64,000 nt of DNA from Bdellovibrionales bacterium (GTDB lineage Bacteria; Bdellovibrionota; Bdellovibrionia; Bdellovibrionales; JAGQZY01): NCBI GenBank assembly GCA_020435205.1, contig JAGQZY010000001.1, positions 58,229-122,228 on the forward strand. Direction: 5' to 3'. Below, one piece after another: positions 4,062-46,781 of the stretch. The first letter of the stretch is position 1, and every line of letters begins with the position of its first letter. Under the pieces are notes generated by a model that saw only the letters and a list, made by a program, of their open reading frames with translations, did not search any database and was not told the origin of the DNA. The translations under genes were made by a program, and so were the position numbers.

Positions 4062-4406
4062 TTATTTACAGGTATCGACCGACTTGTCGTAACAGCCAGA
4101 ATAGTTAGGATAGCTTTGGCGACAGGCGCTATTCACATTAAGCACACAGCTGGGAAACTCTTCGCCAGTGTTGGCTTTACACTCGTTCACAGTTTTATCA
4201 AAACAACCCGAGTAGTTAGGATAGTTTATTTGGCAAACTTGGCTGACAGCATCGATACATGTAGAGAAAACATTGGCGGTCATGCTGCAGGTGACTGTGG
4301 TTTTGGTATTGGCTTTAACAACAATGCTGTCGCCACTTTCCAGGTTAATGTCGGCTGCAAGGCCGTTCAGACTCAAAAGAATGGTTAAGATAAAAACTCG
4401 AATCAT
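4062..4406 (-). CDS. Small secreted Cys-rich protein (114 aa) with an internal 2 x ~30-aa duplication
   Basis: Signal peptide MIRVFILTILLSLNGLAA. The repeats are CIDAVSQVCQINYPNYSGCFDKTVNECK and CVLNVNSACRQSYPNYSGCYDKSVDTCK. I do not recognise a family. Confidence 0.55.
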   Translation of the reverse strand: MIRVFILTILLSLNGLAADINLESGDSIVVKANTKTTVTCSMTANVFSTCIDAVSQVCQINYPNYSGCFDKTVNECKANTGEEFPSCVLNVNSACRQSYPNYSGCYDKSVDTCK

Positions 4407-4487: not shown

Positions 4488-4518
4488 AAAAAAAGCCCAG
4501 GCATTGCCTGAGCTTTTT
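4488..4518. terminator. Intrinsic terminator hairpin downstream of rpsI (A-run/T-run flanked, potentially bidirectional)
   Basis: GCCCAGGC-att-GCCTGAGC stem (8 bp including one G-U pair) at 4495..4513, flanked by A7 (4488-4494) and T5 (4514-4518). Confidence 0.7.
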
Positions 4519-4546
4519 GAATACTAGCCGATGAGATGGCTTGAAA

Positions 4547-4942
4547 TTAACGTTTAGAGAACTGAGAAGCTCTACGAGCGCCTTTAAGACCGTATTTCTT
4601 ACGTTCCACCATTCTTGAGTCACGAGTGAGAAGACCAGCCTTCTTTAAGGTATCGCGAAGAGTTTCATCGTACTGGGTAAGAGCACGAGAAATACCATGG
4701 CGAATAGCGCCAGCCTGTCCAGATTCACCGCCACCTTTTACAGTGATCTTAAGGTCCACTTTATTGGATTGTGAAGTGATCTGAAGAGGAAAGACAAGAT
4801 GAGCTTTTGAAGAGGCTCTCTTCATGTATTGTTCCATCTCTTTACCATTGATGGTAATTTTGCCAGTCCCTGTAGACATAAAAACTCGAGCCGAGCTGGT
4901 TTTTCTTCTTCCTGTTGCGTAAAAAATCTTTTCAGCAGCCAT
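4547..4942 (-). CDS. rpsI: 30S ribosomal protein S9
   Basis: 131 aa, ending in ...[29 protein letters not shown], the classic S9 C-terminus. Confidence 0.97.
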
Positions 4943-4957
4943 TAATACTCCTCCCTC

Positions 4958-5389
4958 TTACTGTAAAATCTGAGGGTTTTGGGCTTGGTGAGGATGTTCT
5001 CCACCAGCGTATAATTTTAACTTCTTAATCATTTTGCGACCGAGCTTCGTTTTAGGAAGCATGCCTTGAACCGCATCTTCAAGAATAAATGTTGGATTTT
5101 TAATCAACATTTCTTGAGCGGTGGTTTCTTTTAAAGAACCAAAGAAACGAGAGCGACGGAAATACTTTTTATCCAACCACTTGTTCCCAGAAAGAGTGAC
5201 TTTATCAGCGTTGATGATAACCACCATGTCGCCAGTATCCACATGAGGAGTGTAGGTGGGTTTGTTTTTACCGCTTAAAATCATAGCCACTTGTGTGGCT
5301 AGACGGCCCACACTTTTACCGGTGGCATCGATGACAAACCAATTGCGTTTACTTTCAAAATCTTCGCCTTTTGCATTCCAAGTTTTCAT
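4958..5389 (-). CDS. rplM: 50S ribosomal protein L13
   Basis: MKTWNAKGEDFESKRNWFVIDATGKSVGRLATQVAMILSGKNKPTYTPHVDTGD. The start is placed at internal ATG 5389 (M18 of ORF 4958..5440). Confidence 0.95.
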   Translation of the reverse strand: MKTWNAKGEDFESKRNWFVIDATGKSVGRLATQVAMILSGKNKPTYTPHVDTGDMVVIINADKVTLSGNKWLDKKYFRRSRFFGSLKETTAQEMLIKNPTFILEDAVQGMLPKTKLGRKMIKKLKLYAGGEHPHQAQNPQILQ

Positions 5390-5424
5390 TGCTTCAACCT
5401 TGCTAAATTTAAGAATGAAAACAC

Positions 5425-6210
5425 TTATAATTTTCGGCACTTAATGTCAAGGCTCTGGGGATAGCGAACCGAGGCTAAAAATAGCCCCTGTGGCGGCGCT
5501 GGCGGGCCAGCTTCTGATCGGTCCTCGGCCCTGAGGAGCTGGGAAATGGCCTGTGGCGGCAGCCCCTTTTCGTGGTACCACATGAGAGTTCCTACAATAT
5601 TTCTCACCATTTGCTTCAGAAAGCCATTACCTCGGATATGGAAGTCCACAAAACCGCTATCTCGAGGCACCCAGCGGCAAAGATTGAGGCGGCGGCGCGT
5701 GGAGGACACCGTGGTCCCCTGGGATTGAAAACTGGAAAAGTCATGCTCGCCCAAGAGAAGCTCTGACGCCTCCTGTAAAAATTTCAGGTTTAGCTCGTCC
5801 CGAAAGTGCCAGCTATAGCGGAGAAGGAAAGGGTTTGCCCGCTCACGGCAAAACATTCGATAGACATAGCGCTTTTCCACAGCCGAAATTTGGGCGTGAA
5901 AATCCGAGGGAGCCAATTCCACTTTTTTAATACTGATGGAGGCTGGGGTGAGCCGGTTGAGACTGTAGTGGAGATTCTTCAGGCGCTTGTCGTTAGGCAA
6001 GTCGGCGTGGGCCCACTGGTTAATAGCATGGACTCCGCGGTCGGTGCGGCCAGAGCCGACCACCTTCACTTCTTGATCAAAGATTTTGGAAAGCCTTTCT
6101 TCAAGGACGCCCTGAACCGTGTGGGAATGTTTGGGCTGTTTTTGCCAACCAAAGAAATCAGTTCCATCATAGCAAAGGCAAAAACGGACCCTTTGCAGCT
6201 TAGAAGCCAA
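5425..6210 (-). CDS. truA: tRNA pseudouridine(38-40) synthase TruA
   Basis: RFCLCYDGTDFFGWQKQ...GSGRTDRGVHA (catalytic Asp motif). The TTG start at 6210 overlaps the stop of the upstream barrel gene. Confidence 0.9.
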   Translation of the reverse strand: MASKLQRVRFCLCYDGTDFFGWQKQPKHSHTVQGVLEERLSKIFDQEVKVVGSGRTDRGVHAINQWAHADLPNDKRLKNLHYSLNRLTPASISIKKVELAPSDFHAQISAVEKRYVYRMFCRERANPFLLRYSWHFRDELNLKFLQEASELLLGEHDFSSFQSQGTTVSSTRRRLNLCRWVPRDSGFVDFHIRGNGFLKQMVRNIVGTLMWYHEKGLPPQAISQLLRAEDRSEAGPPAPPQGLFLASVRYPQSLDIKCRKL

Positions 6211-7216
6211 CAGCGAATCCCCCAGTGATCATGTTGGAGGTAAAATCCTTGCGTTCATCCAGACCCACCACTTGGCGGAACTGAAGGTCCAGCCAAGTTT
6301 CTGTGATTCCATACTCAGAGTAAAGAGCTGTTCCATAGCTAAAGTAAGACAGGGAAATCAAAAGGCCAGCCGAAGCCACTAAAACCGGGGCACCACCAAA
6401 ATGATTGGAACCACCATCACTTCGGCGCTCCCAAAAAGTATAGTAGCCAGCGCCACCATCCACATAAGGAACAAAAAGTTGTCCCGGACTAAAACCAAAT
6501 TTATAAGTCACAGTGGCTGTGTTGGGGAAAACCAAGAATTGAAAGGTCTCTTTGGGCTGAATGCCAGGGTTAGATCCCCCAGAGAACTCCCCGTTTCCGT
6601 CACTAAAAAAGAGTCCCGACCCCACTTTAAATAAGAAGTTCCCAAGGAAATCAAAAAGCTTCCATTCATAATCGACATTAAGAATGAAACTCGCCTTGTC
6701 GCCATAGACTTGGGAAAAACCCTTGCTCGGCCCTTGGATATCAGGGGGGCCGTAGACACCGCCACGAAAAGAAAACACAGAGTCCGAGGGTAAAACGGCA
6801 GCATTGTAAATATAGCGGCCATCGGCAGTGACCTTTTGTGGTTTCTCCATAACATCACTGGGAGGATCGATTTTGGACTCTTTAGAGTAGTAATAGGTGC
6901 CGTCGTCATCAAGGTCTTCTGGTTTTTCGATGTCACCCGGAGTTTTGTCAGTGACCTTTTCTCCATCACCGTAATAGTAGATCCCGTCGTCGGAGACCCT
7001 CTGAGGTTGTTCGACACCTTCGATATTTATCGCTGTAGGCTTTTTACTTTTGGTATTGTAAATATAGGTTCCGTTTTTATGCACTTGTGCTGGGGCTTCG
7101 CTGAGTGGGTCTTCCTGTGTCGATGTTGAGGGATAGGGGTACTCGGCAGGGGGGGCCTCTTCTGCAAAGGCACAAAATGAATAGAGAAGACAAAGAAGGG
7201 AAAGTAATTTTATCAT
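6200..7216 (-). CDS. Predicted outer-membrane beta-barrel protein (338 aa) with N-terminal EKPxxVxxDGxYYY repeats; partner of the upstream CFI-box protein
   Basis: Start ATG 7216 with SD GGAGGAAGG. Signal peptide MIKLLSLLCLLYSFCAFA. The C-terminal half has alternating hydrophobic strands and ends ...ITGGFAVGF (terminal aromatic beta-signal). An ATGA overlap links it to the stop of 7213..8625. Confidence 0.6.
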   Translation of the reverse strand: MIKLLSLLCLLYSFCAFAEEAPPAEYPYPSTSTQEDPLSEAPAQVHKNGTYIYNTKSKKPTAINIEGVEQPQRVSDDGIYYYGDGEKVTDKTPGDIEKPEDLDDDGTYYYSKESKIDPPSDVMEKPQKVTADGRYIYNAAVLPSDSVFSFRGGVYGPPDIQGPSKGFSQVYGDKASFILNVDYEWKLFDFLGNFLFKVGSGLFFSDGNGEFSGGSNPGIQPKETFQFLVFPNTATVTYKFGFSPGQLFVPYVDGGAGYYTFWERRSDGGSNHFGGAPVLVASAGLLISLSYFSYGTALYSEYGITETWLDLQFRQVVGLDERKDFTSNMITGGFAVGF

Positions 7217-8625
7217 ACCTTCCTCCCGCGAGCTCTCCACACAAAAAATCCTATACCCAAAAGAATGAAAATAAAGGCCAAATGACTGGTGAAGTGCAAG
7301 GCCAACCCAGCGGCGGCCCAAAGTGGCCACAGCACAACTCGAAACACAGCCTTGCTCTTCGGGTGATTGCGGATCCATTTGGCGATAGGAGGGCTCACGG
7401 TATAATAGGTTTGGATCAACAAGCGGCCAAGGCTAGAGCGCTTTAGGATGCGGTTGCGAAATTTACGGAAAGTTTTTACTTTGGGGCGGAAGGGAGTTCC
7501 ATAGGTGGCGGTTGTAATAAAGCAGTCAAACTCTTCTTCAAGCAAGCCGACCACTTTAGAGGGGCTCGCGATGTGGCAGTTCTGTTGCCAAGCATCGGTA
7601 CTCGTGGTGTCAAAGCACTCTGTGTTCAGGCTAGCCACAGTGTTAGAAATGGAAGTGAAATAGCCAACGTTACCGGCCTCATCAATACTGGCCATGCGAA
7701 ACCAATACTCACTGCCGTTGTTAAGACCCTCGATAGTGTTATCACTCAAACCCAAAGTTTGAAATCCAGTACTTGAGTTTGAGGACACTTTAAAATCTTT
7801 TGACGAAGCCGTTTGTGTATTAGGGAGGGTGCGTTCTGCATAATAAATACGTATAGAAGAAAAATCGACATCACTACTAGTAATGCCAGGGAAGCTCGAA
7901 GGAGCTTTGACGTCCTCAATAAAAACTTTGCCGTCGCCCGGGTAAGCAATAAAGTTGCAAGCCGATAATCCTGAGTAGCTGACGGTGCTTTCACAAAAGG
8001 TGGCCGGGGAGGCGCCACTGTTGATGACAGAAAGCCCTAACTCAATTTGGGTGCTATAGTCATCGATGGTGTCGTCACTATCGGTAGAGGAATCAAAACC
8101 CACCCGAATTCTTTTGGTGCTGGCGGCTGAAGAGCTACAACTGCTCACTCCTAAAACATCATTACAAAGGGTACTCCAGGGAATATAAACAGTGACGGGG
8201 GAGTTGACCTTGGTCGTCTTATTATTTTCAGGGGCGTCACTGCCACTACCATTGCCGGTGGGTGACATGGAGATATCGTCCAACCGGGTTGGGTTCGTGT
8301 CGTCGATGGTGATCAGGGGGGTTCCATAAACAGTGGAAGACTCAAAAGTGATTTTTAATCTTAAGTTTGGATAAATGCTTCGCGAGTTACAAGCCTCGCC
8401 GTCTCCAGCCACCTCACAGGTATCACAAGGGTTGGCAAGATCCGTTGAACTACAGTCAAGACCGCTGACCCTGCCGCCATAAACTTTGGTTACTGTTTGC
8501 GAGTTATCGGTACAAAGTTTACCTGTACAGGTAGAGAACCCACCAATTTGGGTGATTTTAATTTCAGCCAAAGCCTGCGATGAGAACAGTAGAATAATTA
8601 GGCAATAAAAGTGTCTAAGCCCCAT
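7213..8625 (-). CDS. Secreted adhesin-like protein (Cys-rich N-domain, Ser/Thr/Asp-rich region, FN3-like segment) ending in a CFI-box module plus C-terminal TM helix and basic tail
   Basis: Signal peptide MGLRHFYCLIILLFSSQALA. FN3-like segment GSEYWFRMASIDEAGNVGYF. CFI-box module CFITTATYGTPFRPKVKTFRKFRNRIL...GRLLIQTYYTVSPPIAKWI. TM helix and tail LAFIFILLGIGFFVWRARGRKV. Confidence 0.65.
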   Translation of the reverse strand: MGLRHFYCLIILLFSSQALAEIKITQIGGFSTCTGKLCTDNSQTVTKVYGGRVSGLDCSSTDLANPCDTCEVAGDGEACNSRSIYPNLRLKITFESSTVYGTPLITIDDTNPTRLDDISMSPTGNGSGSDAPENNKTTKVNSPVTVYIPWSTLCNDVLGVSSCSSSAASTKRIRVGFDSSTDSDDTIDDYSTQIELGLSVINSGASPATFCESTVSYSGLSACNFIAYPGDGKVFIEDVKAPSSFPGITSSDVDFSSIRIYYAERTLPNTQTASSKDFKVSSNSSTGFQTLGLSDNTIEGLNNGSEYWFRMASIDEAGNVGYFTSISNTVASLNTECFDTTSTDAWQQNCHIASPSKVVGLLEEEFDCFITTATYGTPFRPKVKTFRKFRNRILKRSSLGRLLIQTYYTVSPPIAKWIRNHPKSKAVFRVVLWPLWAAAGLALHFTSHLAFIFILLGIGFFVWRARGRKV

Positions 8626-8643
8626 GGGAAAAGCTTGTCACGT

Positions 8644-9663
8644 TTAACTAAGCTTGTCAAAAATCCTTTGGGCAATAAGCAACCCGTTGGCAGCCGCGCC
8701 TCGCTGGAGATTATCGGCGACCACCCACATCATCCATGTGTTCTCAAAGCCAGGATCCTTGCGGAGTCGACTGACAAACGCGTTGGTTTCCCCTTGCACT
8801 TCTCGGTAACTATGAAAACTCTTCTCTGAGTTGTGGGGGAGGTAGCTAATGAAGTCGCATGCCTGCAAAGCTTTCTCAATAGTGGCGCGGTCCACGTCCC
8901 TGTTGAGGGTCACCCAACAAGCCTCACCGTGGGCGTTCATAGTGGGCACTCTCACGGTGAAAGCAGAAATTTTTAGGCCAGGAAGATCCAAAATCTTCTT
9001 GGTTTCTTGCATGATTTTGATTTCTTCTGAACAAAATCCTTCGTCATTAAAAGAACCAATTTTAGGTTGGCAATCAAAAGCTATAGGTAAAATGAATGTT
9101 TTCCCAGGCTGCAAGTTTTCGCCCCTGAGGACCTGTTGACTTTGATTAACAAGATCCTCAATACCCTCTTTGCCAGCGCCGCTGACGGATTGATAACTGG
9201 CAACCCGAACTTCTTCGATGCCAAATTCTTTTAAAGCCTCAAGCGCCATGACCAATTGGATGGTGGAGCAATTGGGGTTGGCGATGATCTGGGGGGTGGT
9301 AGCCGAAGCGATGTGATGAAAATTAATTTCTGGTACAACCAAAGGTGTCGTGGGATTCATGCGATAGGCGGCTGAATTATCAATGGCAATGGCTCCGTCT
9401 TCGACAGCTTTTGGGGCCCATTCCTTACTAATATCATCCCCTGAAGAGAAAAAGACCACGTCAAGACCTTTGAAGCAGCCATTTTCTAAAACTTGGCATG
9501 CAAAGCTTTGATCCCTAAAATTGATGGAGCGACCTTTTGATTTTTCGCTGGCAAAAAGGCGAAGTTCAGTGAAGTTATATTCTGACTTTTCAAGAAGTTG
9601 AATAAAAGTCTCACCAACAAGGCCTGTGGCCCCAACAATTCCTACCGCGATTGAACGACTCAT
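8644..9663 (-). CDS. asd: Aspartate-semialdehyde dehydrogenase
   Basis: VGIVGATGLVGETF NAD-binding motif; active-site region IIANPNCSTIQLVMAL; 339 aa. Confidence 0.92.
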   Translation of the reverse strand: MSRSIAVGIVGATGLVGETFIQLLEKSEYNFTELRLFASEKSKGRSINFRDQSFACQVLENGCFKGLDVVFFSSGDDISKEWAPKAVEDGAIAIDNSAAYRMNPTTPLVVPEINFHHIASATTPQIIANPNCSTIQLVMALEALKEFGIEEVRVASYQSVSGAGKEGIEDLVNQSQQVLRGENLQPGKTFILPIAFDCQPKIGSFNDEGFCSEEIKIMQETKKILDLPGLKISAFTVRVPTMNAHGEACWVTLNRDVDRATIEKALQACDFISYLPHNSEKSFHSYREVQGETNAFVSRLRKDPGFENTWMMWVVADNLQRGAAANGLLIAQRIFDKLS

Positions 9664-10433
9664 TTATTTTTCCTCACTCTGGCTCTTCTCTTCTTTTGTG
9701 TTTTGTGAAACAAACCTAGGACAGCGCCTAGGATGGCATAGGCAAAGAAAAGTACAAATAACATAACTTCGGGCTCGGCAGCCACGATAAATAGGATAAG
9801 AACCCCTATGACTAGGTAGGTGAAAGGTTGTCTCCGTTTAAAGTTAAGATCTTTGAAGCTTTTATAACGAAAATTGCTCACCATGGTTAGGCCAAGCATA
9901 AAAGTCATAAATAGAAGCAACCAATTGTGACTCGCATCCAGCTCGAGCTTGGTAAAACAAAGGACGGAACTGGCAACAATACCTGCCGCCATAGGGATCG
10001 GCAGTCCTTGGAAGTGGCTACTTTCATCAGCGGATTGCACATTAAAGCGCGCCAGACGTAAAGCTCCGCAGGCGACGAAAACGAAGCTAGCCAGCCAGCC
10101 CACCCGACCAAAAGGTTGTAGGGCCCAAAGGTACATGATGAGGGCCGGTGCCATACCAAAACTGATCAGGTCACAAAGAGAGTCATACTCGGCGCCAAAG
10201 TGACTAGAGGTGCGAGTCAATCTGGCCACCCGCCCATCGAGTAGATCAAAAACGGCGGCAGCGACGATAGCGTAAGAGCCAACAAGATATTCACCACGAA
10301 TGGCAAGGATAATAGCCATAAAGCCAAAAAACATATTCGTTGTCGTTAACAGATTCGGAAGAAGATAAATGTTAGAGCCTGGCGGTGGCTTTTTAGGAGC
10401 ACCGTTTTGGCGAGAAAAGTTTGTTTCGCTCAC
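9660..10433 (-). CDS. pssA: CDP-diacylglycerol--serine O-phosphatidyltransferase (CDP-alcohol phosphatidyltransferase family)
   Basis: Motif DLLDGRVARLTRTSSHFGAEYDSLCDLI (DGx2ARx8Gx3Dx3D); polytopic membrane protein. Confidence 0.8.
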   Translation of the reverse strand: MSETNFSRQNGAPKKPPPGSNIYLLPNLLTTTNMFFGFMAIILAIRGEYLVGSYAIVAAAVFDLLDGRVARLTRTSSHFGAEYDSLCDLISFGMAPALIMYLWALQPFGRVGWLASFVFVACGALRLARFNVQSADESSHFQGLPIPMAAGIVASSVLCFTKLELDASHNWLLLFMTFMLGLTMVSNFRYKSFKDLNFKRRQPFTYLVIGVLILFIVAAEPEVMLFVLFFAYAILGAVLGLFHKTQKKRRARVRKNK

Positions 10434-11083
10434 ACTAAGCCTCCAAAAAGAAAAAAGAGGCCCGACAACAAAATGGCACTTAAGACAGGCTGAGTGAGAT
10501 TGTCATCCAGTCCCCAAATCGGAACCAGTTCAGCAATGGCTCCAATGAGACCGGCGAGGAAAGTCACAACCAAAATATGATCCAACATAATCCCATGGCT
10601 TTGAAAATAAAAATAGGCCGCTACTGAACAAAATAAAAAAGCCGCTACTGAACCTTGCAAGCTCTTGTTTCCAATTAATTTATCATGTCCAAAAAGAAGG
10701 CCAAACAAACTTGCCGTGGGGTCGCCAACAGCGAGAAAGAGGACTGCCAGTGCAACAATTGGAGTTGGAAATAAAAAGAAAATGATTCCGCAGCCAACCA
10801 CAAGGTGAGTTGTTCCCGATAAGCGAAAGGCCTCTCTTTTGCGAAGAACTGGGTTGAAAACCTTAACCGCCCATCGGTTTACGGGTTTCGAATACTGTCG
10901 TCCAAAATCCAAAAGTAAAATGGAGCTGCCAAGGATGCCGTAAATCCAAAGACAAGTGGTGAAAGAAAATTGGTCGAGGAGAATAAACATGGCCATCACG
11001 CCCGTGAAGTGGAATATCTTTCGAGTTAAATGCAAATCTTGCTGGCTTTTTAGGCGTAACATTTTGGCACCCAGTGTTAACAC
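10430..11083 (-). CDS. Polytopic membrane protein of the CTP-dependent dolichol/phytol/diacylglycerol kinase (cytidylyltransferase-like) superfamily
   Basis: Multi-TM protein. The motif GNKSLQGSVAAFLFC resembles the KS(L/W)EGS motif of the family. A 4-nt overlap links it to pssA. Confidence 0.5.
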   Translation of the reverse strand: MLTLGAKMLRLKSQQDLHLTRKIFHFTGVMAMFILLDQFSFTTCLWIYGILGSSILLLDFGRQYSKPVNRWAVKVFNPVLRKREAFRLSGTTHLVVGCGIIFFLFPTPIVALAVLFLAVGDPTASLFGLLFGHDKLIGNKSLQGSVAAFLFCSVAAYFYFQSHGIMLDHILVVTFLAGLIGAIAELVPIWGLDDNLTQPVLSAILLSGLFFLFGGLV

Positions 11084-27244: not shown

Positions 27245-27799
27245 TTACCGAGAGGCCATTGGTTTTAAGTCACCTTTTCGAAAAAAAGTGATTAATAACA
27301 AGGGAAGCATTAACAAGAGGCCACCCGTTTGGGGGCCTTTTTTATTATTGGTGGGAGCGATCATGCCGCAGCCACCCCCTCCGCCCCCAGAGCCTGAGGT
27401 GGAACCATCGGAAGCAGGATCAGAGTTGTTAAGAAACTCATCGCCGTTGCTGGTTCCATCATTGTCGGAATCCAGGTTACCAAATTGGGAATCTGCGAAA
27501 ATCGTTTCTAAGCTATTAGATCCCGTGGCGGGGAGAGAAGAGCCATTGCCGAGTCCCAGGCGGTTGGCGGCACTGCGAAAGTCCTCACCAAAATTATTGC
27601 CACTGATGGTAGCAGAGCCACCTGCGGAGCTGGTATGACAAAGAAGGCAACTTCCCTCTTTGCCGCCCACTCCAGACCCAATTCCATAGTGGGCTTCAAT
27701 AGCCAGCAAAACCCTGGAAGGATTTGTATTCATATAGGACGTCGAAGCAGAGGCCTCAGGAAGGCCAGCCAATAAAATAAAGCCTGCAGTTAAAATCAT
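27245..27799 (-). CDS. Secreted protein with a single CxxCH haem-c motif, a DxDxDG Ca-binding-like motif, a Gly6-Cys stretch and a C-terminal TM/basic sorting-type tail
   Basis: MILTAGFILLAGLPEASA; CLLCH (27635..27649); DSDNDGTSNGDEF; SGSGGGGGGCGMIAPTNNKKGPQTGGLLLMLPLLLITFFRKG. It has no SD of its own and its ATG overlaps the stop of the upstream micro-ORF. Confidence 0.6.
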   Translation of the reverse strand: MILTAGFILLAGLPEASASTSYMNTNPSRVLLAIEAHYGIGSGVGGKEGSCLLCHTSSAGGSATISGNNFGEDFRSAANRLGLGNGSSLPATGSNSLETIFADSQFGNLDSDNDGTSNGDEFLNNSDPASDGSTSGSGGGGGGCGMIAPTNNKKGPQTGGLLLMLPLLLITFFRKGDLKPMASR

Positions 27800-27980: not shown

Positions 27981-30554
27981 CTAGTAGGAGTAAGTTGAGG
28001 CCATCCCCATGCTTTGCCAACTGAGACTGAGCAAGATTTGGGACCCAGATCGGTCATAACCTCCAGACTCGGTGAGTAGAGAGATATGCCCTGAAAGCCA
28101 AATGGGTCCAATTCCCTGACCAATAGAAGCATCGAGCCAGTTGGATTTGTAAGATTCAGAGATATAAAAATCCACTGAACTGCGATTGATGGTTCGGTAG
28201 GCAAATGACATGAGCAAGGGTTGGCTAGAAAGTCCAGAAAAAGCATACTGACCATAGATCCGAATAGTTGATGTCTCAGGAAGAACAAGGTTCAAGGTTC
28301 CACTTGTTTCAATCACTTCGGGGTCGCGAAAATAGCTGAGCTCCATTTGCAAGCCACTTTTTTGACTACTCCCTGTGGTCCCATAGCCGCTCAGCCCTTG
28401 GGAGGTGTTCATGCCTATACCGGCATATGCGGACAAATATTGAGCCTCCGGTAGCTTTTGGTTAAGTGCTAGATCTTCGTGAACTTCTTTATTAAAGATC
28501 AAACCCCCGCCAAGGCTAAACAGGCTTCCTAGAGGAATCTGCCCGCCCATATCTAAGGACATCTTATTGATTTTTAAAATATCCTTGCTGGTAGAGGTTT
28601 TCTGAGAAAATTCAATGCCACCAGGTAAACCAAAAAAAAGATTAGAAGCTAACTGTAGCGATAGATCACCAATTTCAGTTTTAGTTACAACTTCGCTAAA
28701 AGGAAGTGTTGTCAGTTTCTCTTCTTGCTCAGAAGGGGACTGATAGCGAACTCCAAGCGCAAAGCTGGGGCTTGTGTAGGCAAAGTAGGCCTGAGGATAA
28801 GAAAAACTTTCCTCAACTTTTGTTAAATTGCCCTCACCAGAAAATTGACTGAGCCCATATTGAGCCGCTAGGACAAAACCTGATTGCGAGTCGAGAAGAA
28901 GTGAGGGGTTGTCAGGCGCAATATCTTCAAAGTAATTAGAAATGGCAATATTCGCTTGTGCCCATTGAGGGAAAAGCAAAAAAAGAAATAAAATGAAAAC
29001 AGTCAGTCCCCGTGCCATTGGTAGTACGAGCAGGATGAGTAAAACCAGGGGCCACGGGTTGTCCCAGATAAAGAGGAGCGAGGAAAGAACGACTCGAGTG
29101 GAAGACTTCCAAAAGGGATTCTGTTCGATAAAGTAAGCCATACTGGGGGAATACTGATAGTATTTTTTGATAAACCAGCGACCCATGGCAAACTTTTTTA
29201 AAAAATGATCGCGGATCGAGCGAAAAGCTTCGACTTTGGGATGAAGGGACGAGCCAAAAGCAGCCGTCGCAATAAAGCAATGAAGATCTTTACCTTGTTG
29301 ATCCCCCCCGCAAGAAGGCGTGAAATTGGGATCATAGGGAGTAACGGCCTCACGGTAATTGGCCACGTAGCCGTAATAGGTATTCAGCACGTGAGCGGCG
29401 TTGGCATAACCCTCTCTTCCGAAAGGAATTCCAGAATGAATAATATTTGGGTTAGAAAATTTGCCAATGCGAGTACAGTTAAATCCATTATCTCGACAAT
29501 GATCGGAATAGGACATCACGCTGCGGATTTGATTGACGGTATCGACAAATCCATACTTTTCAGGATGGCTCACTTCTTCAGTAAAATCTAACCCATGTTG
29601 GTAACGATCATGCAGCAAGCTCAAGTTGTGTCCCATTTCATGGGACATGGTATATGCGGGGCAGCCATAAAGATAAACACTATAGCCATAGGCCTCGTTG
29701 AAGTTAATTCGGTTTTGCGAGCCATCATAGGAGGCTGTGTAACCAAGGCCACAATAAGTGGTCGGCGCATCAATAGTCATTTGTACTAAATCGGCACCTA
29801 GTGCATCGCGAGCCGAGGTGACATCTGGAAGAGTGATCAAAGTGGAGAGGTCACTGGACATATCGCCAGCGCTCGTATGAGTCGTTGCACGCACATCAAG
29901 AAGTCGATAGCGAAAATTGATACAACTCTGCTCAAGAGTGTCATTCACCACAACCATATTCGCTTCTAACATAGGTTCTATATTAGAGTTAGTCGCGGCA
30001 TCCGTCGAATAAACTAGGAGAACATCAATAAAATTATCAGAACTTGGCTCTGTAACTGTCGCTCGAGACGAAAGTGATTTTTGTGCGAAAGCCTTGAGAG
30101 ACTCTAGGTCTTCCATTGGATTTTGATGACTTGCTTGCAGTGAACTAATATAAAACTGATTCTTGAGATCTTTTTGCACTCGATAGACTTTTCCTCCTGC
30201 AAAGATCTCGCCGATAACTTGTTTAGCATTAATATTGAGGCTGACGTAGCTACTGGGATCGTGGTCGACTTTGCCAAACCAAATAAACCCACTGCGAGAG
30301 GGAACAATTTTTTGCTTTCTTGCAGTTAAAGTGAAGTTTTTGTCGAGATCAAATTGAATCGTTTCTGAGTCTTTAACTTCAGTAAGGTCCCCGTCAAGAG
30401 TTATGGCTTGTTGGCCTTCTTCGAAATAAGGGCTTTGGGAATATACTGGCTTCAAGCTTAAAATGCTTTTATCAGATCGGATAGAAAATATTTTAGATTG
30501 CGCAGAAACATCAGGGCTCAACAAGAGCACAAACATTATAAACATCAAACTCAT
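27981..30554 (-). CDS. 857-aa fusion protein: signal peptide, propeptide-like region, metzincin (reprolysin-like) Zn-protease, CFI-box module, two hydrophobic segments, and a C-terminal beta-barrel-like domain
   Basis: HEMGHNLSLLHD (29607..29642) plus Met-turn SVMSYS. CFIATAAFGSSLHPKVEAFRSIRDHFL...KKYYQYSPSMAYFI. WPLVLLILLVLPMARGLTVFILFLFLLFPQWAQA. The C-terminal ~320 aa have alternating strands and end ...MGMASTYSY. Confidence 0.7.
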   Translation of the reverse strand: MSLMFIMFVLLLSPDVSAQSKIFSIRSDKSILSLKPVYSQSPYFEEGQQAITLDGDLTEVKDSETIQFDLDKNFTLTARKQKIVPSRSGFIWFGKVDHDPSSYVSLNINAKQVIGEIFAGGKVYRVQKDLKNQFYISSLQASHQNPMEDLESLKAFAQKSLSSRATVTEPSSDNFIDVLLVYSTDAATNSNIEPMLEANMVVVNDTLEQSCINFRYRLLDVRATTHTSAGDMSSDLSTLITLPDVTSARDALGADLVQMTIDAPTTYCGLGYTASYDGSQNRINFNEAYGYSVYLYGCPAYTMSHEMGHNLSLLHDRYQHGLDFTEEVSHPEKYGFVDTVNQIRSVMSYSDHCRDNGFNCTRIGKFSNPNIIHSGIPFGREGYANAAHVLNTYYGYVANYREAVTPYDPNFTPSCGGDQQGKDLHCFIATAAFGSSLHPKVEAFRSIRDHFLKKFAMGRWFIKKYYQYSPSMAYFIEQNPFWKSSTRVVLSSLLFIWDNPWPLVLLILLVLPMARGLTVFILFLFLLFPQWAQANIAISNYFEDIAPDNPSLLLDSQSGFVLAAQYGLSQFSGEGNLTKVEESFSYPQAYFAYTSPSFALGVRYQSPSEQEEKLTTLPFSEVVTKTEIGDLSLQLASNLFFGLPGGIEFSQKTSTSKDILKINKMSLDMGGQIPLGSLFSLGGGLIFNKEVHEDLALNQKLPEAQYLSAYAGIGMNTSQGLSGYGTTGSSQKSGLQMELSYFRDPEVIETSGTLNLVLPETSTIRIYGQYAFSGLSSQPLLMSFAYRTINRSSVDFYISESYKSNWLDASIGQGIGPIWLSGHISLLTESGGYDRSGSQILLSLSWQSMGMASTYSY

Positions 30555-31543
30555 GGATTTACCTTTCTCGCTTTACTTTCTTTAATGAGATCATGAAGGC
30601 GACGAAAAACCTGTTGGCTGGTAATCGCCTTCATACAATGAAAATGCCCTTGTGGACAGGAGTTCCCTCCGTGCACATGGCAGGGCCTGCAATCGAGCTC
30701 TTCATCCTCGACAACCGCGCAACGTTCAAAAGAAGGATAGAAGCCAAACTCTTTGGTAGTGGGTCCAAAAATAGCCAATGTTGGTTTTTTGAAGCCAATG
30801 GAGATATGCATGGGGCCTGAGTCCGTGGTGACGACTGCGGTGGCCTTTTTAATAATAGACATCAACTCCTCAAGACTGGTTTGATTGGAAAAATTGATAA
30901 CTTCCTTTGGCCAGGGTTTATCACCATTACCAACAATAACTACGTTAATCCCATTAAAAATGAGTGTATTTGCTAATTCAAAAAAACCTGGCCACTCTTT
31001 ATTTTTTTGGCTGGCATAGGGGTGAAGGACTATAAAATTTGGAAAGCTGAGTCCGCTCACATCAAGGCCTTCAAAGTCTGGAAAGCGTGGACGTAGCTTT
31101 TCTAGTTCAGGGATTTCAATGTTAAAAGGGGATAAACAGACTTCAGCATATTTTTCGACAACATGCTTGGTGAGTTCACTTTTGTATTTTCTATTTTTAA
31201 CAAAAGCGCGACGCTCTCGCGATTGCTTTTTGATATGGGTAAACCTTCCTTTGACAAAAGCTGCTAAAGAGAAGGACTTCAAGTTTCCTTGAAGATCGAA
31301 TACATAATCATAATCAGGAATGGTTCGATAAAGTTTTATCATCTGAATGATTGACGATTTTGCGGGCAGAGTGAAAATTTGGTGGATGGATCCAAGGCTT
31401 GCAAAAATAGCCTTGCCTCCGGGAGAGGTCAGTACGTCAATTTCAGCCTCAGGGAATTTGCGATGGAAATAGTCGATGACCCCTGTCGACAAAACAATAT
31501 CGCCGGTAGCACTAAATCGAACGAACAAAACTTTCATACTCAT
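30551..31543 (-). CDS. Glycosyltransferase family 9 (heptosyltransferase-like)
   Basis: MKVLFVRFSATGDIVLSTGV..., HPYASQKNKEWP, VTTDSGPMHIS, C-terminal CRPCHVHGGNSCPQGHFHCM. Its TGA overlaps the ATG of the 857-aa gene (ATGA). Confidence 0.75.
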   Translation of the reverse strand: MSMKVLFVRFSATGDIVLSTGVIDYFHRKFPEAEIDVLTSPGGKAIFASLGSIHQIFTLPAKSSIIQMIKLYRTIPDYDYVFDLQGNLKSFSLAAFVKGRFTHIKKQSRERRAFVKNRKYKSELTKHVVEKYAEVCLSPFNIEIPELEKLRPRFPDFEGLDVSGLSFPNFIVLHPYASQKNKEWPGFFELANTLIFNGINVVIVGNGDKPWPKEVINFSNQTSLEELMSIIKKATAVVTTDSGPMHISIGFKKPTLAIFGPTTKEFGFYPSFERCAVVEDEELDCRPCHVHGGNSCPQGHFHCMKAITSQQVFRRLHDLIKESKARKVNP

Positions 31544-43614: not shown

Positions 43615-45192
43615 TTGTTTGATAGTTGGTTAAGGAGTCGAAAATTTTTATTTCTGCTCTTTATGGCGCTCATGTATTTTTTGTCTCATTGGATCCATTG
43701 GTCCGATTCCGAGATATGGCCTATATACTTAAGTCAGCACTTGTTCTCTAACCTTATTGATGACTCTCTCATTTACAAATTTACTTTTTACCTAAGCCTC
43801 AAACCACTCTATAGCCTTCCCCTTAGTAATATTGAAACCTTTATGGGGGCTCGTCTGATCTACGCCACAATAGGAATTTATATTGTCTACTTGCTCTATC
43901 AGTTAGCGAATAGAATTTATAAAGATCCTTCCAAGGCCTTTTTAACCGTCATTTTGTTTGTTACCTGTACTTTTTTTATGAGTCGTGGTTTTCGAGTGCG
44001 CGCAGACCTTTTGCTCTGTTTATTCCAACTTTTGCTCATTTTATTTTATTTCAATTTTAGGGAATCTAATAAACTTCTCTGGATCGTGGCTATATTATTG
44101 GTGTTGCCACTGATGCTCTTTAGCTCTCCAAAAGTAATATTCTTCCTCCCGGTCAGTTTGTTGTTTATAGGTGGCCACCTTTATCTTCGAGGTGAAAAAA
44201 AGTTAGAGCTCAAGATCATAGTTGGGGTGCTCTCCCTATCGGCCATTGTTACAGGGCTTTTATTTGTCTTCTTCTTTAAAGAGTTCTTATCGGCCTGGTC
44301 TTATTTTGTGACCTCTTATGGAGTGAGTGGACATGGGGGGGGATTCTTTAACATCAAGTCCTGGCACTATGTCCTTCGCCTTTTTAAGGAGAACCCTATT
44401 TTTATGGGGTTCATTTTAGCTTCGATCTACCTTTCAAAACGAAACCACAAAAGGAATCCTGAACTGATAGCATTAAGGTGGGCAGCCATGCTGTCCTTGA
44501 TCTTTATCTTTATACACAGTGATCGTTTGCCCTTTTTTATATTGGCACTCCTTCCCTTGCCCGTGATCTTGGCGGGAGGAGCTATTGTGGATTTGCTTAA
44601 AGAATGGCAACTTTCCAAGAGAGTGGTGTCGATGCTGATCATGGTTTTACTGGCAAAAGCCAGTGGTTATGCCGTGTATACTTTTTTAAGAAATTACAAC
44701 ACCGATCAAGTGCAAGCCATTCAGCAAATTGAGGGAAGCTTAAAAAGCATGATCCGCGAGCCCACCATTTATGATGGCTTGGGGTTCCTTCCCCGTTATC
44801 CGAAGCTTATACCCTATTATATCACCCGCGATGGTCAGCAGTCGGAATTAGATTTGTTAAAATTTTTAGAATCCAAACGACCAGAAATTGTCTTTTTTTC
44901 TAACCGAATGTTTATTCATTTTCGGCTGGTCATGGATTATCTCAATGAGAATTTTTACATTCCTATTGGCAACGGCATCTATATGAAAGGTCGTTACATG
45001 AGCGAGCTGAGTCCCGAGCAACGCCAGGGTTATAGCCTCTATGCAGGCAGTGATTTTATGGATTTAAAATGGATACCACCAGGGGAGGCTTTTCAGCCGA
45101 AGCCTCTTATGCTCATTGCACCTTTGCCTCCGATTCGCTTACCTGGCGACAAAAGTTTTGCGCGCATATTTGATTACGATAGTCGCTATTAG
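43615..45192 (+). CDS. Polytopic membrane protein (525 aa), possibly a GT-C/ArnT-PMT-like glycosyltransferase
   Basis: About 11 or more predicted TM helices followed by a ~170-aa soluble C-terminal domain, which is a GT-C-like topology. No catalytic motif was confidently identified. It contains a G8 tract at 44335..44342. Confidence 0.35.
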   Translation: MFDSWLRSRKFLFLLFMALMYFLSHWIHWSDSEIWPIYLSQHLFSNLIDDSLIYKFTFYLSLKPLYSLPLSNIETFMGARLIYATIGIYIVYLLYQLANRIYKDPSKAFLTVILFVTCTFFMSRGFRVRADLLLCLFQLLLILFYFNFRESNKLLWIVAILLVLPLMLFSSPKVIFFLPVSLLFIGGHLYLRGEKKLELKIIVGVLSLSAIVTGLLFVFFFKEFLSAWSYFVTSYGVSGHGGGFFNIKSWHYVLRLFKENPIFMGFILASIYLSKRNHKRNPELIALRWAAMLSLIFIFIHSDRLPFFILALLPLPVILAGGAIVDLLKEWQLSKRVVSMLIMVLLAKASGYAVYTFLRNYNTDQVQAIQQIEGSLKSMIREPTIYDGLGFLPRYPKLIPYYITRDGQQSELDLLKFLESKRPEIVFFSNRMFIHFRLVMDYLNENFYIPIGNGIYMKGRYMSELSPEQRQGYSLYAGSDFMDLKWIPPGEAFQPKPLMLIAPLPPIRLPGDKSFARIFDYDSRY

Positions 45193-45950
45193 TTATTGCA
45201 AGCACAGGCCCTTAATGCTGCCGCACTTTGTCCTGCTGCTGTGGTTGCAGCAGAATCTCTGTATCGTGTGCCACTAGCATCTGTGGAGTTGAAGCAGCCT
45301 AGTCCCAGGCCCCAGTTTGAAGAAAAAACAGTACTTCCGTCAGCCCCCATGGCATTCATGACATTTTGACAGTTTGTATTGGACCCACTGGAGCCAGCAT
45401 AGGTTAAAGTCGCCGAGTTATAGCCACCATGAGTTGAACAAACAGTAGTACAAGATTGATTTGAACTTCCATGGTACCAGCAGTAACCACCGTATAAAGT
45501 TCCTGCGCAGGTCACTTTTTCAGAAAATTGCTTCAATCCGCCAGCGCCTGCGCAATACACGTAATTTTGCAAGGTGCTGTCGTAGTAAAACTGGCCAGCG
45601 GTGGCGGCACTACCCGAGCAAGTGCCATTAGCCGTTTCAGTACTGACATCATACCAGGCTCCACCTTTACACATTCTTAAAGCGTTAGAGCCATTGTAGC
45701 TCATCGTGCCATTAGTGCAGGTTCCCCCCAGTGAGGTTCCCTCCACTTTGACCCAAGTGGTGTTATCATTTTTGCAATATTTGAGATCGGTGCCATCCCA
45801 GGATAGCTCGCCAGCAGTGCAAGCCATGGCGTTGTTAGGTAGAAAGAACAAAAAAGTTATAGGCAAAAGGAAGCCGGTGGCTTTTAAAAAGAAAGCCTTA
45901 ATAACAGAGTAGAATTGAGAGCCTTTTGGCTTTAAGGAAAATTGTGGCAT
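45189..45950 (-). CDS. Secreted 14-Cys protein, tandem paralog A
   Basis: Signal peptide ...LLPITFLFFLPNNAMA, then CTAGELSWDGTDLKYC.... It ends RACACNN. Confidence 0.6.
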   Translation of the reverse strand: MPQFSLKPKGSQFYSVIKAFFLKATGFLLPITFLFFLPNNAMACTAGELSWDGTDLKYCKNDNTTWVKVEGTSLGGTCTNGTMSYNGSNALRMCKGGAWYDVSTETANGTCSGSAATAGQFYYDSTLQNYVYCAGAGGLKQFSEKVTCAGTLYGGYCWYHGSSNQSCTTVCSTHGGYNSATLTYAGSSGSNTNCQNVMNAMGADGSTVFSSNWGLGLGCFNSTDASGTRYRDSAATTAAGQSAAALRACACNN

Positions 45951-46031: not shown

Positions 46032-46781
46032 TTAGTTGTTACAGGCGCAGGCGCGGTTCCCAATAGAATAGGCTCCTCCGGCGGTTGTTGCGCTGGTGTC
46101 CCGGTATCGGGCGTTAGTATCAGGGATAACGAAACAACCCAAATTCATCCCCCAATTTAAACCAGTGGTACTGCCTGTACCAGCCCCCAAAGCATTCAGG
46201 ACATTTTGGCAATTTGCAAGGAGACCATCAGAACCAGCGTAACTCAGTGTGCCCGAGTTATAACCTCCGTGTGTTGAGCAGACCGTGGTACAGGATTGAT
46301 TGTTTGAGCCATAGTACCAACAGTAACCACCAACTAAAATCCCTCCGCAGGTCGCCTTTTCAGAAAATTGTTTCAATCCTCCGGCGCCCGCACAGTAAAC
46401 GTAGTTCTGCAGGGTGCTATCATAGTAAAATTGTCCAGCCGTTGCGGCATTGCCCGAGCAAGTGCCATTGGCTGTTTCTGTGCTGACGTCATACCAAGCC
46501 CCGCCTTTACACATTCTTAAAGCGTTAGAGCCATTATAGCTAATCGTGCCATTAGTGCAGGTTCCCCCCAGTGAGGTTCCCTCCACTTTGACCCAAGTGG
46601 TGTTATCATTTTTGCAATACTTGAGATCGGTTCCATCCCAGGATAGCTCGCCAGCGGTACAGGCCAGAACTAGGGATGGGCTGGTGATTGTGGCGATGGA
46701 AAAAGCGAATAGAAAGCGACTCAAAAAGGATTGAGGGTTTAAAAAAATCTTAAAAAAACAGTTATCACTTAACCTACGCAC
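46032..46781 (-). CDS. Secreted 14-Cys protein, tandem paralog B
   Basis: Same mature N-terminus CTAGELSWDGTDLKYCKNDNTTWVKVEG... and same C-terminus RACACNN. The signal peptide is diverged. The start (GTG 46781 or internal TTG) is uncertain. Confidence 0.55.
   Translation of the reverse strand: MRRLSDNCFFKIFLNPQSFLSRFLFAFSIATITSPSLVLACTAGELSWDGTDLKYCKNDNTTWVKVEGTSLGGTCTNGTISYNGSNALRMCKGGAWYDVSTETANGTCSGNAATAGQFYYDSTLQNYVYCAGAGGLKQFSEKATCGGILVGGYCWYYGSNNQSCTTVCSTHGGYNSGTLSYAGSDGLLANCQNVLNALGAGTGSTTGLNWGMNLGCFVIPDTNARYRDTSATTAGGAYSIGNRACACNN

Follow-up and report, generated by a model that had tools for sequence, protein, structure and literature searches.

The DNA analysed here, a 64,000-nucleotide stretch from a Bdellovibrionales bacterium (GenBank assembly GCA_020435205.1, contig JAGQZY010000001.1, positions 58,229 to 122,228; hereafter the window), carries on its minus strand a pair of overlapping genes, which we call gene A (7213..8625) and gene B (6200..7216). 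Gene A encodes a 470-aa exported protein with a C-terminal CFI-box-CTERM domain, and gene B encodes a 338-aa outer-membrane (OM) protein. As originally predicted, the pair is lodged between asd, which ends 18 nt upstream of gene A, and truA, for which the TTG at 6210 is the only usable start and which shares 11 nt with the end of gene B.

The gene A product starts with a Sec-type signal peptide (residues 1-20, MGLRHFYCLIILLFSSQALA, ending in …SSQALA and followed by EIK). The passenger that follows is rich in Cys and includes an S/T/D-rich stretch as well as an FN3-like segment at approximately residues 226-330. A hidden Markov model (HMM) search of NCBIfam gave a weak match to MXAN_2561_fam at residues 272-321, and a search of Pfam returned no match except a spurious one to DUF3963. 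Cys pairs of the passenger are conserved in the orthologues, which implies that it folds, and forms disulfides, in the periplasm. The C-terminus reads CFITTATYGTPFRPKV...YYTVSPPIAKWI and continues into hydrophobic segments and the tail RARGRKV. All these parts had been described, with the coordinates of the gene, in the original prediction, and all were confirmed from the open reading frame (ORF) and its sequence. The name CFI-box-CTERM, given in the original prediction, was borne out by the NCBIfam profile NF041770 (CFI_box_CTERM), matched by residues 368-435 (7321..7524, minus strand) over profile positions 1-68 of 69 with 85.5 bits and an E-value of 1.6e-24, well above the curated cut-off of 40 bits. 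The box opens with the invariant Cys368, and the subsequent FRxFRN, G and YY..SP..A motifs also correspond to invariant columns of our alignments A2 and A3. Thus, the CFI box of gene A is C-terminal in a signal-peptide protein and precedes a hydrophobic span and basic residues. The hydrophobic segment or segments and the basic tail (7216..7320, minus strand) are predicted to form an N-out/C-in anchor, a topology deduced from the natural fusions described below.

At the junction of the two genes, GGGAGGAAGGTATGA, the ATG of gene B (7216-7214) overlaps the TGA of gene A (7215-7213), with three bases in common. The resulting ATGA (7216-7213), together with the Shine-Dalgarno-like GGGAGGAAGG at 7227-7218, makes up a translational coupling site (7213..7227, minus strand). 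Four-nucleotide overlaps by themselves are common in bacterial operons.

The gene B product also has a Sec-type signal peptide (residues 1-18, MIKLLSLLCLLYSFCAFA, ending in …FCAFA and followed by EE), and its C-terminus, ...ITGGFAVGF, is an aromatic beta-signal; overlap, ribosome-binding site, signal peptide and C-terminal residues can all be read in the sequence as first reported. Residues 19-145 (6782-7162, minus strand) comprise a conserved EYPYP motif at the mature N-terminus and four hairpin repeats of ~28 aa with the pattern [GVI]E.P....DG.YYY, for which Pfam contains no matching family. In more distant relatives (L028-L030) long acidic linkers stand in place of these repeats. Residues 146-338 (6203..6781, minus strand) constitute the barrel domain, with eight predicted strands. 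Gene B matches NF053801 ("Bd0486 family outer membrane beta-barrel protein") with 144.8 bits (E-value 3.7e-42, below the cut-off of 370) and NF040596 (MXAN_2562 family barrel) with 56.6 bits (E-value 2.7e-15, below the cut-off of 100). Judged by these profile scores, it is a significant homologue of both NCBIfam barrel families, representing a related subfamily or divergent relative rather than a formal member. The Pfam and NCBIfam searches returned no POTRA, Omp85 or ShlB match for gene B, and neither PF00691 (the OmpA-type peptidoglycan-binding domain) nor any other Pfam family was matched.

An exact-sequence look-up of gene B found nothing recorded, and 20 homologues were retrieved from 5.8 billion clusters. 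Their alignment (A1) displays three regions, namely EYPYP after the signal peptide, three or four ~28-aa repeats and a conserved C-terminal part of ~190 aa. When A1 was supplied to AlphaFold2, residues 146-338 of gene B were modelled as eight long strands, mostly with a per-residue confidence (pLDDT) >85, and the N-terminal repeats as four low-confidence hairpins. Comparison of this model with the Protein Data Bank (PDB) using Foldseek placed the transmembrane (TM) domain of OmpA on top (E-value 3e-7, target-normalised TM-score 0.74), other matches being OmpX, NspA, Ail, the N-domain of OprF and OmpW. Gene B therefore models as a small, eight-stranded OmpA/OmpX-like barrel with a periplasmic N-terminal extension of ~125 residues, in agreement with the OM beta-barrel originally proposed. 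The two most conserved polar clusters, E263-x-R265-x-D267 and D320-x-R322-K323-D324, lie in the model at the barrel end opposite the termini and, by the rule that the termini of OM proteins are periplasmic, would face the extracellular side. A 532-aa relative from a Bdellovibrionales metagenome-assembled genome (MAG), P0004 (L011, 5830-7485), contains two complete tandem barrel domains in a single ORF.

Conservation and fusion of the gene A and gene B pair

Scanning with A1, one genome per species, yielded 29 loci from MAGs labelled Bdellovibrionales, Bdellovibrionia, Bdellovibrionaceae or Pseudobdellovibrionaceae. A tblastn comparison detected a homologue of gene A directly upstream of the barrel gene in all loci with upstream DNA (28/28), usually in the order pssA-asd-A-B-truA-rplM. 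The most distant barrel homologues, P0019 and P0020, belong to the same block, and the genes upstream of them end in CFVATAAYGS… CFI boxes, so that a CFI-box gene A precedes the barrel in 30 of 30 loci in total (28 genome loci and 2 distant homologues). Furthermore, every one of the 27 aligned relatives of gene A (alignment A3) matches NF041770. The junction reads ATGA in 15 related loci and GTGA, TGATG, TAATG or a longer overlap in several more, the rest having short gaps. The pair is kept intact where its flanks have changed: asd and pssA are inverted in L022, L030 has an insertion after asd, and another insertion precedes truA in L020/L021 and in Bdellovibrio bacteriovorus HD100. Compared with the window proteins, full-length matches to gene A are roughly 28-37% identical, whereas the values are 32-50% in gene B, 47-70% in asd and 62-83% in pssA. 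The passenger of gene A thus evolves faster than any other protein of the block, a pattern that fits surface exposure.

In at least three lineages, genes A and B are joined into a single ORF, as seen in L019, in L020/L021 (two assemblies with different sequence) and in P0164, a 655-aa fused protein from the representative library. The layout of the fusions is always the same: after the span of the CFI-box part come the basic tail and then a typical AxA-type signal peptide, which ends in …SVSPNAYA before EED in L019, in …SFSPAIKA before QGY in L020 and in …GVLKSANA before QYL in P0164. By Rosetta-stone logic such fusions link A to B functionally, and the sequence data support the two as a dedicated, functionally linked pair. 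The original suggestion of an adjacency beyond chance is accordingly upheld by the 30/30 loci, the retention of stop/start coupling and the fusions. The fusions also bear on topology. Judging from the position of the internal signal peptides, the tail of the CFI-box protein must lie in the cytoplasm and the spans that follow the passenger must be odd in number, since the fused downstream barrel could not otherwise be exported.

The HD100 gene table lists Bd0484 (asd), Bd0485 and Bd0486 (both hypothetical), Bd0487-0490, Bd0491 (truA) and Bd0492 (L13), and by synteny alone Bd0485 is the counterpart of gene A. We know of no published function of Bd0485 or Bd0486. According to the published HD100 table, 30 min of predation leaves the expression of both unaltered (ratios 0.87 and 0.91). 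Bd0487, induced 7.4-fold at the same time point, was considered as the gene A orthologue and rejected, because Bd0485 adjoins asd and Bd0486 in the HD100 table and Bd0487-0490 represent an insertion; the insertion of L020/L021 is at the same position as Bd0487-Bd0490. As a constitutive device, the module belongs to the core genome of Bdellovibrio-like bacteria, and recognising it identifies a conserved, constitutively expressed envelope pair, Bd0485/Bd0486 in the model predator, that can readily be knocked out.

CFI boxes outside gene A

The CFI box is far more widespread than the pair. A profile search collected 28,675 clusters at E ≤ 1e-3; of the 150 best representatives, ~146 have the box at their very C-terminus, and the distance from its Cys to the stop is 76-129 aa in all of the 80 best metagenome loci. 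A literature search for "CFI-box-CTERM" found no papers. In the AlphaFold2 model of the second CFI-box protein of the window (see below), the CFI-box region consists of four helices leading into the membrane helix (pLDDT 86-94), and no solved structure resembling it was found. Two long proteins, P0029 (1661 aa) and P0031 (1331 aa), are each composed of two CFI-box proteins fused head-to-tail, in which a basic stretch and then an internal signal peptide come after the first CFI box and its span. In L075, L083 and L087, the downstream ORF starts 0-1 nt after the CFI-box gene, and the product of that in L087 has a similarly hydrophobic and basic C-terminus.

The survey of CFI-box genes for a downstream barrel, put forward as a check in the original prediction, covered 67 loci with at least 500 nt of downstream DNA. 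A recognisable OM barrel gene comes next on the same strand in three of them: a gene B-like barrel in L035, which overlaps the CFI-box gene by 17 nt, and barrels matching Pfam OMP_b-brl in L085 (E-value 1e-15, start 109 nt after the CFI-box stop) and L102 (E-value 1e-9, start 136 nt after the stop). A barrel is consequently not the general partner of the CFI box. It is a recurrent one, probably commoner than chance, and the barrel is tied to particular passengers, not to the CFI-box tag.

The second CFI-box protein of the window (857 aa; 27981..30554, minus strand) consists of a signal peptide, an M12B/Mep72-like metzincin domain at approximately residues 174-414, a CFI box (residues 426-493, E-value 3.5e-22), a span, an internal signal-peptide-like segment and a C-terminal domain. 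After the span, the sequence MARG leads into the signal-peptide-like segment M513-A534 (…LFPQWAQA, followed by N), and the remaining ~320 aa (residues 535-857) form the C-domain. The CFI box (42% identity over 69 aa) is all that this protein has in common with gene A. Neither BLASTP nor hhalign detected similarity between the C-domain and gene B, and the C-domain has no match in Pfam, NCBIfam or PDB sequences. It represents a nearly orphan family: a homologue search with the C-domain gave a single match, an 88%-identical fragment, and one with the C-terminal half of the protein was swamped by CFI-box words. AlphaFold2 applied to residues 420-857 modelled the CFI box alone, the C-domain having a pLDDT <50. 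The C-domain looks beta-rich and ends in …STYSY; a home-made beta-amphipathicity score was discarded, as it did not separate a known barrel from soluble controls.

A homologue of the 857-aa protein, P0021 (534 aa, locus L001), ends after the CFI-box anchor, and one base after its stop L001 has a second gene, the 308-aa product of which matches the C-domain (E-value 4e-9, 27% identity over 256 aa). By sequence comparison, the 857-aa protein on the one hand and P0021 with the 308-aa gene on the other are an independent split/fused pair. Of the claim that a second, fused copy of the gene A and gene B arrangement exists at this place, one part holds, in that a CFI-box protein is indeed fused to a partner encoded by a separate gene in L001; the other does not, as the C-domain is not homologous to gene B.

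Two neighbours of the 857-aa gene, both on the minus strand, deserve mention. The stop of a GT9 lipopolysaccharide (LPS) heptosyltransferase-like gene (30551-31543; best match E-value 2.9e-29, below the cut-off) abuts the ATG of the 857-aa gene, which suggests co-transcription with LPS-core functions. On the other side, an adjoining gene (27245-27799) encodes a 184-aa protein with a CxxCH haem-binding motif (SCLLCH), a D/G/S-rich region, the motif GGGGGGCG, the hydrophobic stretch GGLLLMLPLLLITFF and a basic tail. It has only weak NCBIfam matches (E ≥ 0.003) and no Pfam match, and its C-terminus looks like another Cys-containing sorting tag.

Known systems and the role of the pair

Coupling or fusion of an exported passenger to an OM barrel is also characteristic of type Vb secretion and of autotransporters (types Va/Ve), and it was a type Vb-like passenger/translocator logic that the original prediction had suggested for the pair. 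The parts do not bear out this comparison. In the Pfam and NCBIfam searches and in the eight-stranded model, the pair lacks the 16-stranded Omp85 barrel, the POTRA domains and the TPS domain of type Vb systems. In its fusions, moreover, the passenger is separated from the barrel by a span and an internal signal peptide, an arrangement not known from autotransporters.

A closer parallel, and the best studied one, is offered by the TraA and TraB proteins of the myxobacterium Myxococcus xanthus. The overlap between traA and traB is four bases long (PMC3325183); TraA is a receptor for outer-membrane exchange with a MYXO-CTERM tag, and TraB is an OM barrel with an OmpA domain (PMC3325183, PMC12045341, PMC11980579). 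The two proteins reach the OM independently and form 1:1 complexes, in which AlphaFold puts TraA atop the TraB barrel (PMC12045341). A natural fusion, MXAN_5598, combines an adhesin, an internal MYXO-CTERM and an OM barrel (PMC11980579). In the current model of MYXO-CTERM processing, the protein is exported by Sec and anchored in the inner membrane by its helix, the Cys is lipidated and the anchor is cleaved off by the CPBP protease MrtX; transfer to the surface depends on the type II secretion system, T2SS (PMC11980579). Like TraA, gene A is Sec-exported and Cys-rich and ends in a Cys-containing anchor region, a membrane helix and a basic tail; like traA and traB, genes A and B overlap by four bases, the downstream gene encodes an OM barrel, and a fused form is known as well (compare MXAN_5598). 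Nevertheless, the tag of gene A is a helical CFI box of ~70 aa rather than the short tripartite tag of TraA, and gene B differs from TraB in having eight strands and N-terminal periplasmic repeats but no TSP3 repeats. The likeness is thus one of architecture; we claim no sequence homology to TraA or TraB, nor does it imply membrane fusion or kin recognition.

A known counterpart at the level of sequence is the M. xanthus pair SgmI (MXAN_2561)/MXAN_2562, which has the same gene order as genes A and B and is represented in NCBIfam by NF045522 and NF040596. According to a 2026 preprint, SgmI is implicated in type-IV-pilus-dependent motility, and MXAN_2562 appears co-transcribed with sgmI and has a similar transposon fitness profile. 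Both window proteins stay below the curated cut-offs of these families; SgmI lacks the distal Cys-rich domain of gene A, the tags differ, and the periplasmic repeat region of the Bdellovibrionales barrels is an addition relative to MXAN_2562. The fused protein P0164 bridges the two groups. Its passenger matches MXAN_2561_fam over profile positions 10-279 of 304 (E-value 2e-14), its barrel scores 216 bits against the MXAN_2562 cut-off of 100, and a CFI box is found where the MYXO-CTERM would be. The architecture of P0164 indicates that the same module exists with either tag. With the passenger of P0164, those of the Bdellovibrionales have only the FN3 part in common.

Taking these comparisons together, we consider it rather probable that genes A and B encode a tagged surface protein and its cognate OM barrel, which would form a TraAB-like complex with the barrel as dock or anchor, not as channel. 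The gene A product would be exported by Sec and at first stay in the inner membrane, anchored through its C-terminal span, with the passenger outside and the tail in the cytoplasm, a topology required by the fusions, where an AxA signal peptide follows the basic tail. The gene B product would be inserted separately into the OM by the barrel assembly machinery (BAM). Made in a ratio of ~1:1, the two would then associate, the barrel docking or anchoring the passenger as proposed for TraA atop TraB. By analogy with MYXO-CTERM, and in view of the tag swap, the Cys of the CFI box may receive a lipid and the anchor may be removed by cleavage, whereupon another machine such as the T2SS could transfer the passenger to the surface. 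The role of the pair is most likely that of an adhesin or receptor.

If the barrel instead served as a dedicated channel for the passage of the CFI-box protein across the OM, as TpsB does for TpsA, then tight coupling, conserved adjacency and fusions would equally be expected of a transporter and its substrate, and the larger partner domain of the 857-aa protein (~320 aa) makes a wider barrel conceivable there. We nonetheless regard such a translocator as very unlikely for gene B, whose eight-stranded barrel matches OmpA-TM, OmpX, NspA, Ail and OmpW, and whose lumen cannot pass a 350-aa, disulfide-rich protein. The searches gave no POTRA, Omp85/ShlB or TPS-domain match, the conserved Cys pairs point to a passenger that has folded and formed its disulfides in the periplasm, and in the myxobacterial systems TraA and TraB travel independently to the OM (PMC12045341) and MYXO-CTERM proteins need the T2SS (PMC11980579). 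A small barrel beside a surface protein is hence better read as a partner than, as is tempting, as a secretion pore. That genes A and B are merely inherited neighbours, with the ATGA reflecting ordinary operon packing, is harder still to credit. All 30 loci apparently come from a single lineage that shares the pssA-asd-...-truA-rplM order, and four-base overlaps are an everyday feature of bacteria. But mere synteny does not account for independent in-frame fusions that keep an internal signal peptide, for the survival of the pair through local rearrangements, for a homologous barrel paired with a tagged FN3 protein of matching mutant fitness in Myxococcus, for OM barrel genes recurring downstream of unrelated CFI-box proteins (L085, L102), or for the second split/fused pair of the 857-aa protein and L001.

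More serious, if still doubtful in our view, is the idea of a trans-envelope tether, in which gene A would stay in the inner membrane and its passenger bind the periplasmic repeats of gene B, linking the two membranes as an envelope-integrity device. This would suit a CFI box that is a sizeable conserved helical domain instead of a short cleavage motif and for which no sortase is known, the ~125 conserved periplasmic residues of gene B (four repeats and EYPYP), and a lineage-universal pair that sits in a housekeeping cluster (pssA, asd, truA, rplM) and is not predation-regulated in HD100. On the other hand, P0164 and the MXAN_2562 profile are devoid of the periplasmic repeats, which are consequently not essential to the module, and both the bridging P0164 and the SgmI family speak for sorting of the passenger to the surface. 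The fast divergence of the passenger is typical of exposed proteins, and the conserved polar clusters of the barrel are at its presumed extracellular end.

The reading as tagged surface protein and dock is itself weakened by several observations. Strict vertical synteny in one lineage inflates the count of 30/30 loci, and the homology of the Bdellovibrionales passengers to SgmI is confined to the FN3 part (hhalign E-value ~6e-4). Gene B is without the peptidoglycan-binding OmpA domain that TraB has. Between Cys368 and the membrane span lie ~55-60 conserved helix-forming residues, an arrangement unlike a tripartite tag, and this distance makes lipidation and cleavage by analogy with MYXO-CTERM a weak inference. 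To our knowledge, no processing enzyme or sortase is known for the CFI box. Within the 64-kb window no sortase-like enzyme was found among the multi-span proteins, those checked belonging to the PMT_2, MgtC and YdjM families or being unassigned. Seven CFI-box proteins (L040, L041, L042, L046, L095, L098 and L103) stop 76-82 residues after the Cys, with neither a second hydrophobic segment nor a basic tail. They represent either a shorter anchor variant or truncated genes, and the simple topology model does not explain them. Finally, only the 1:1 coupling of synthesis is inferable, contact between A and B being a proposal drawn from the TraAB analogy.

A bolder form of the surface-protein-and-dock reading, which we think unlikely, would have the CFI-box-CTERM as a true sorting tag functionally interchangeable with MYXO-CTERM, its Cys being modified and the membrane span removed before the protein is displayed at the surface, and the Bd0485/Bd0486-type pair as the universal, constitutive surface receptor-plus-dock of Bdellovibrio-like predators. 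In that case the pair would be homologous to SgmI/MXAN_2562 and hence a candidate prey-contact or pilus-associated adhesin, and the tag swap of P0164 together with the internal signal peptides of the fusions would open a first way into the topology and function of the CFI box.

The NCBIfam family names already exist, and the Myxococcus analogues and fusions have been published. New are the occurrence of the module with a CFI box, its universal presence at a fixed place in the genomes of Bdellovibrio-like bacteria and the tag swap of P0164, as well as the topological evidence from internal signal peptides and the second, unrelated split/fused partner. The very widespread yet uncharacterised CFI-box-CTERM thereby gains a testable context, namely a passenger-plus-barrel module that carries either of two tags: MYXO-CTERM, for which the processing route is now understood, or the CFI box, for which the fusions fix the topology, with the passenger outside and the tail inside.

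Gene neighbourhood and other genes of the window

Genes A and B are part of a co-directional run on the minus strand (4490..11083), which encodes, in order of transcription, an unassigned protein with five membrane spans (10430-11083), a pssA-like CDP-alcohol phosphatidyltransferase (9660-10433), asd (8644-9663), A, B, truA (5425-6210), rplM and rpsI. The only strong terminator-like hairpin follows rpsI (4518-4490). Between rpsI and an M23 peptidase gene, a further minus-strand ORF (4062-4406) encodes a 114-aa signal-peptide protein with an internally duplicated Cys-rich unit (…SYPNYSGC[FY]DK[ST]V..CK), which matches no family. Elsewhere in the window, two tandem paralogues on the minus strand (45189-45950 and 46032-46781), 74% identical to each other, encode Cys-rich and apparently secreted proteins with the unusual C-terminus RACACNN.

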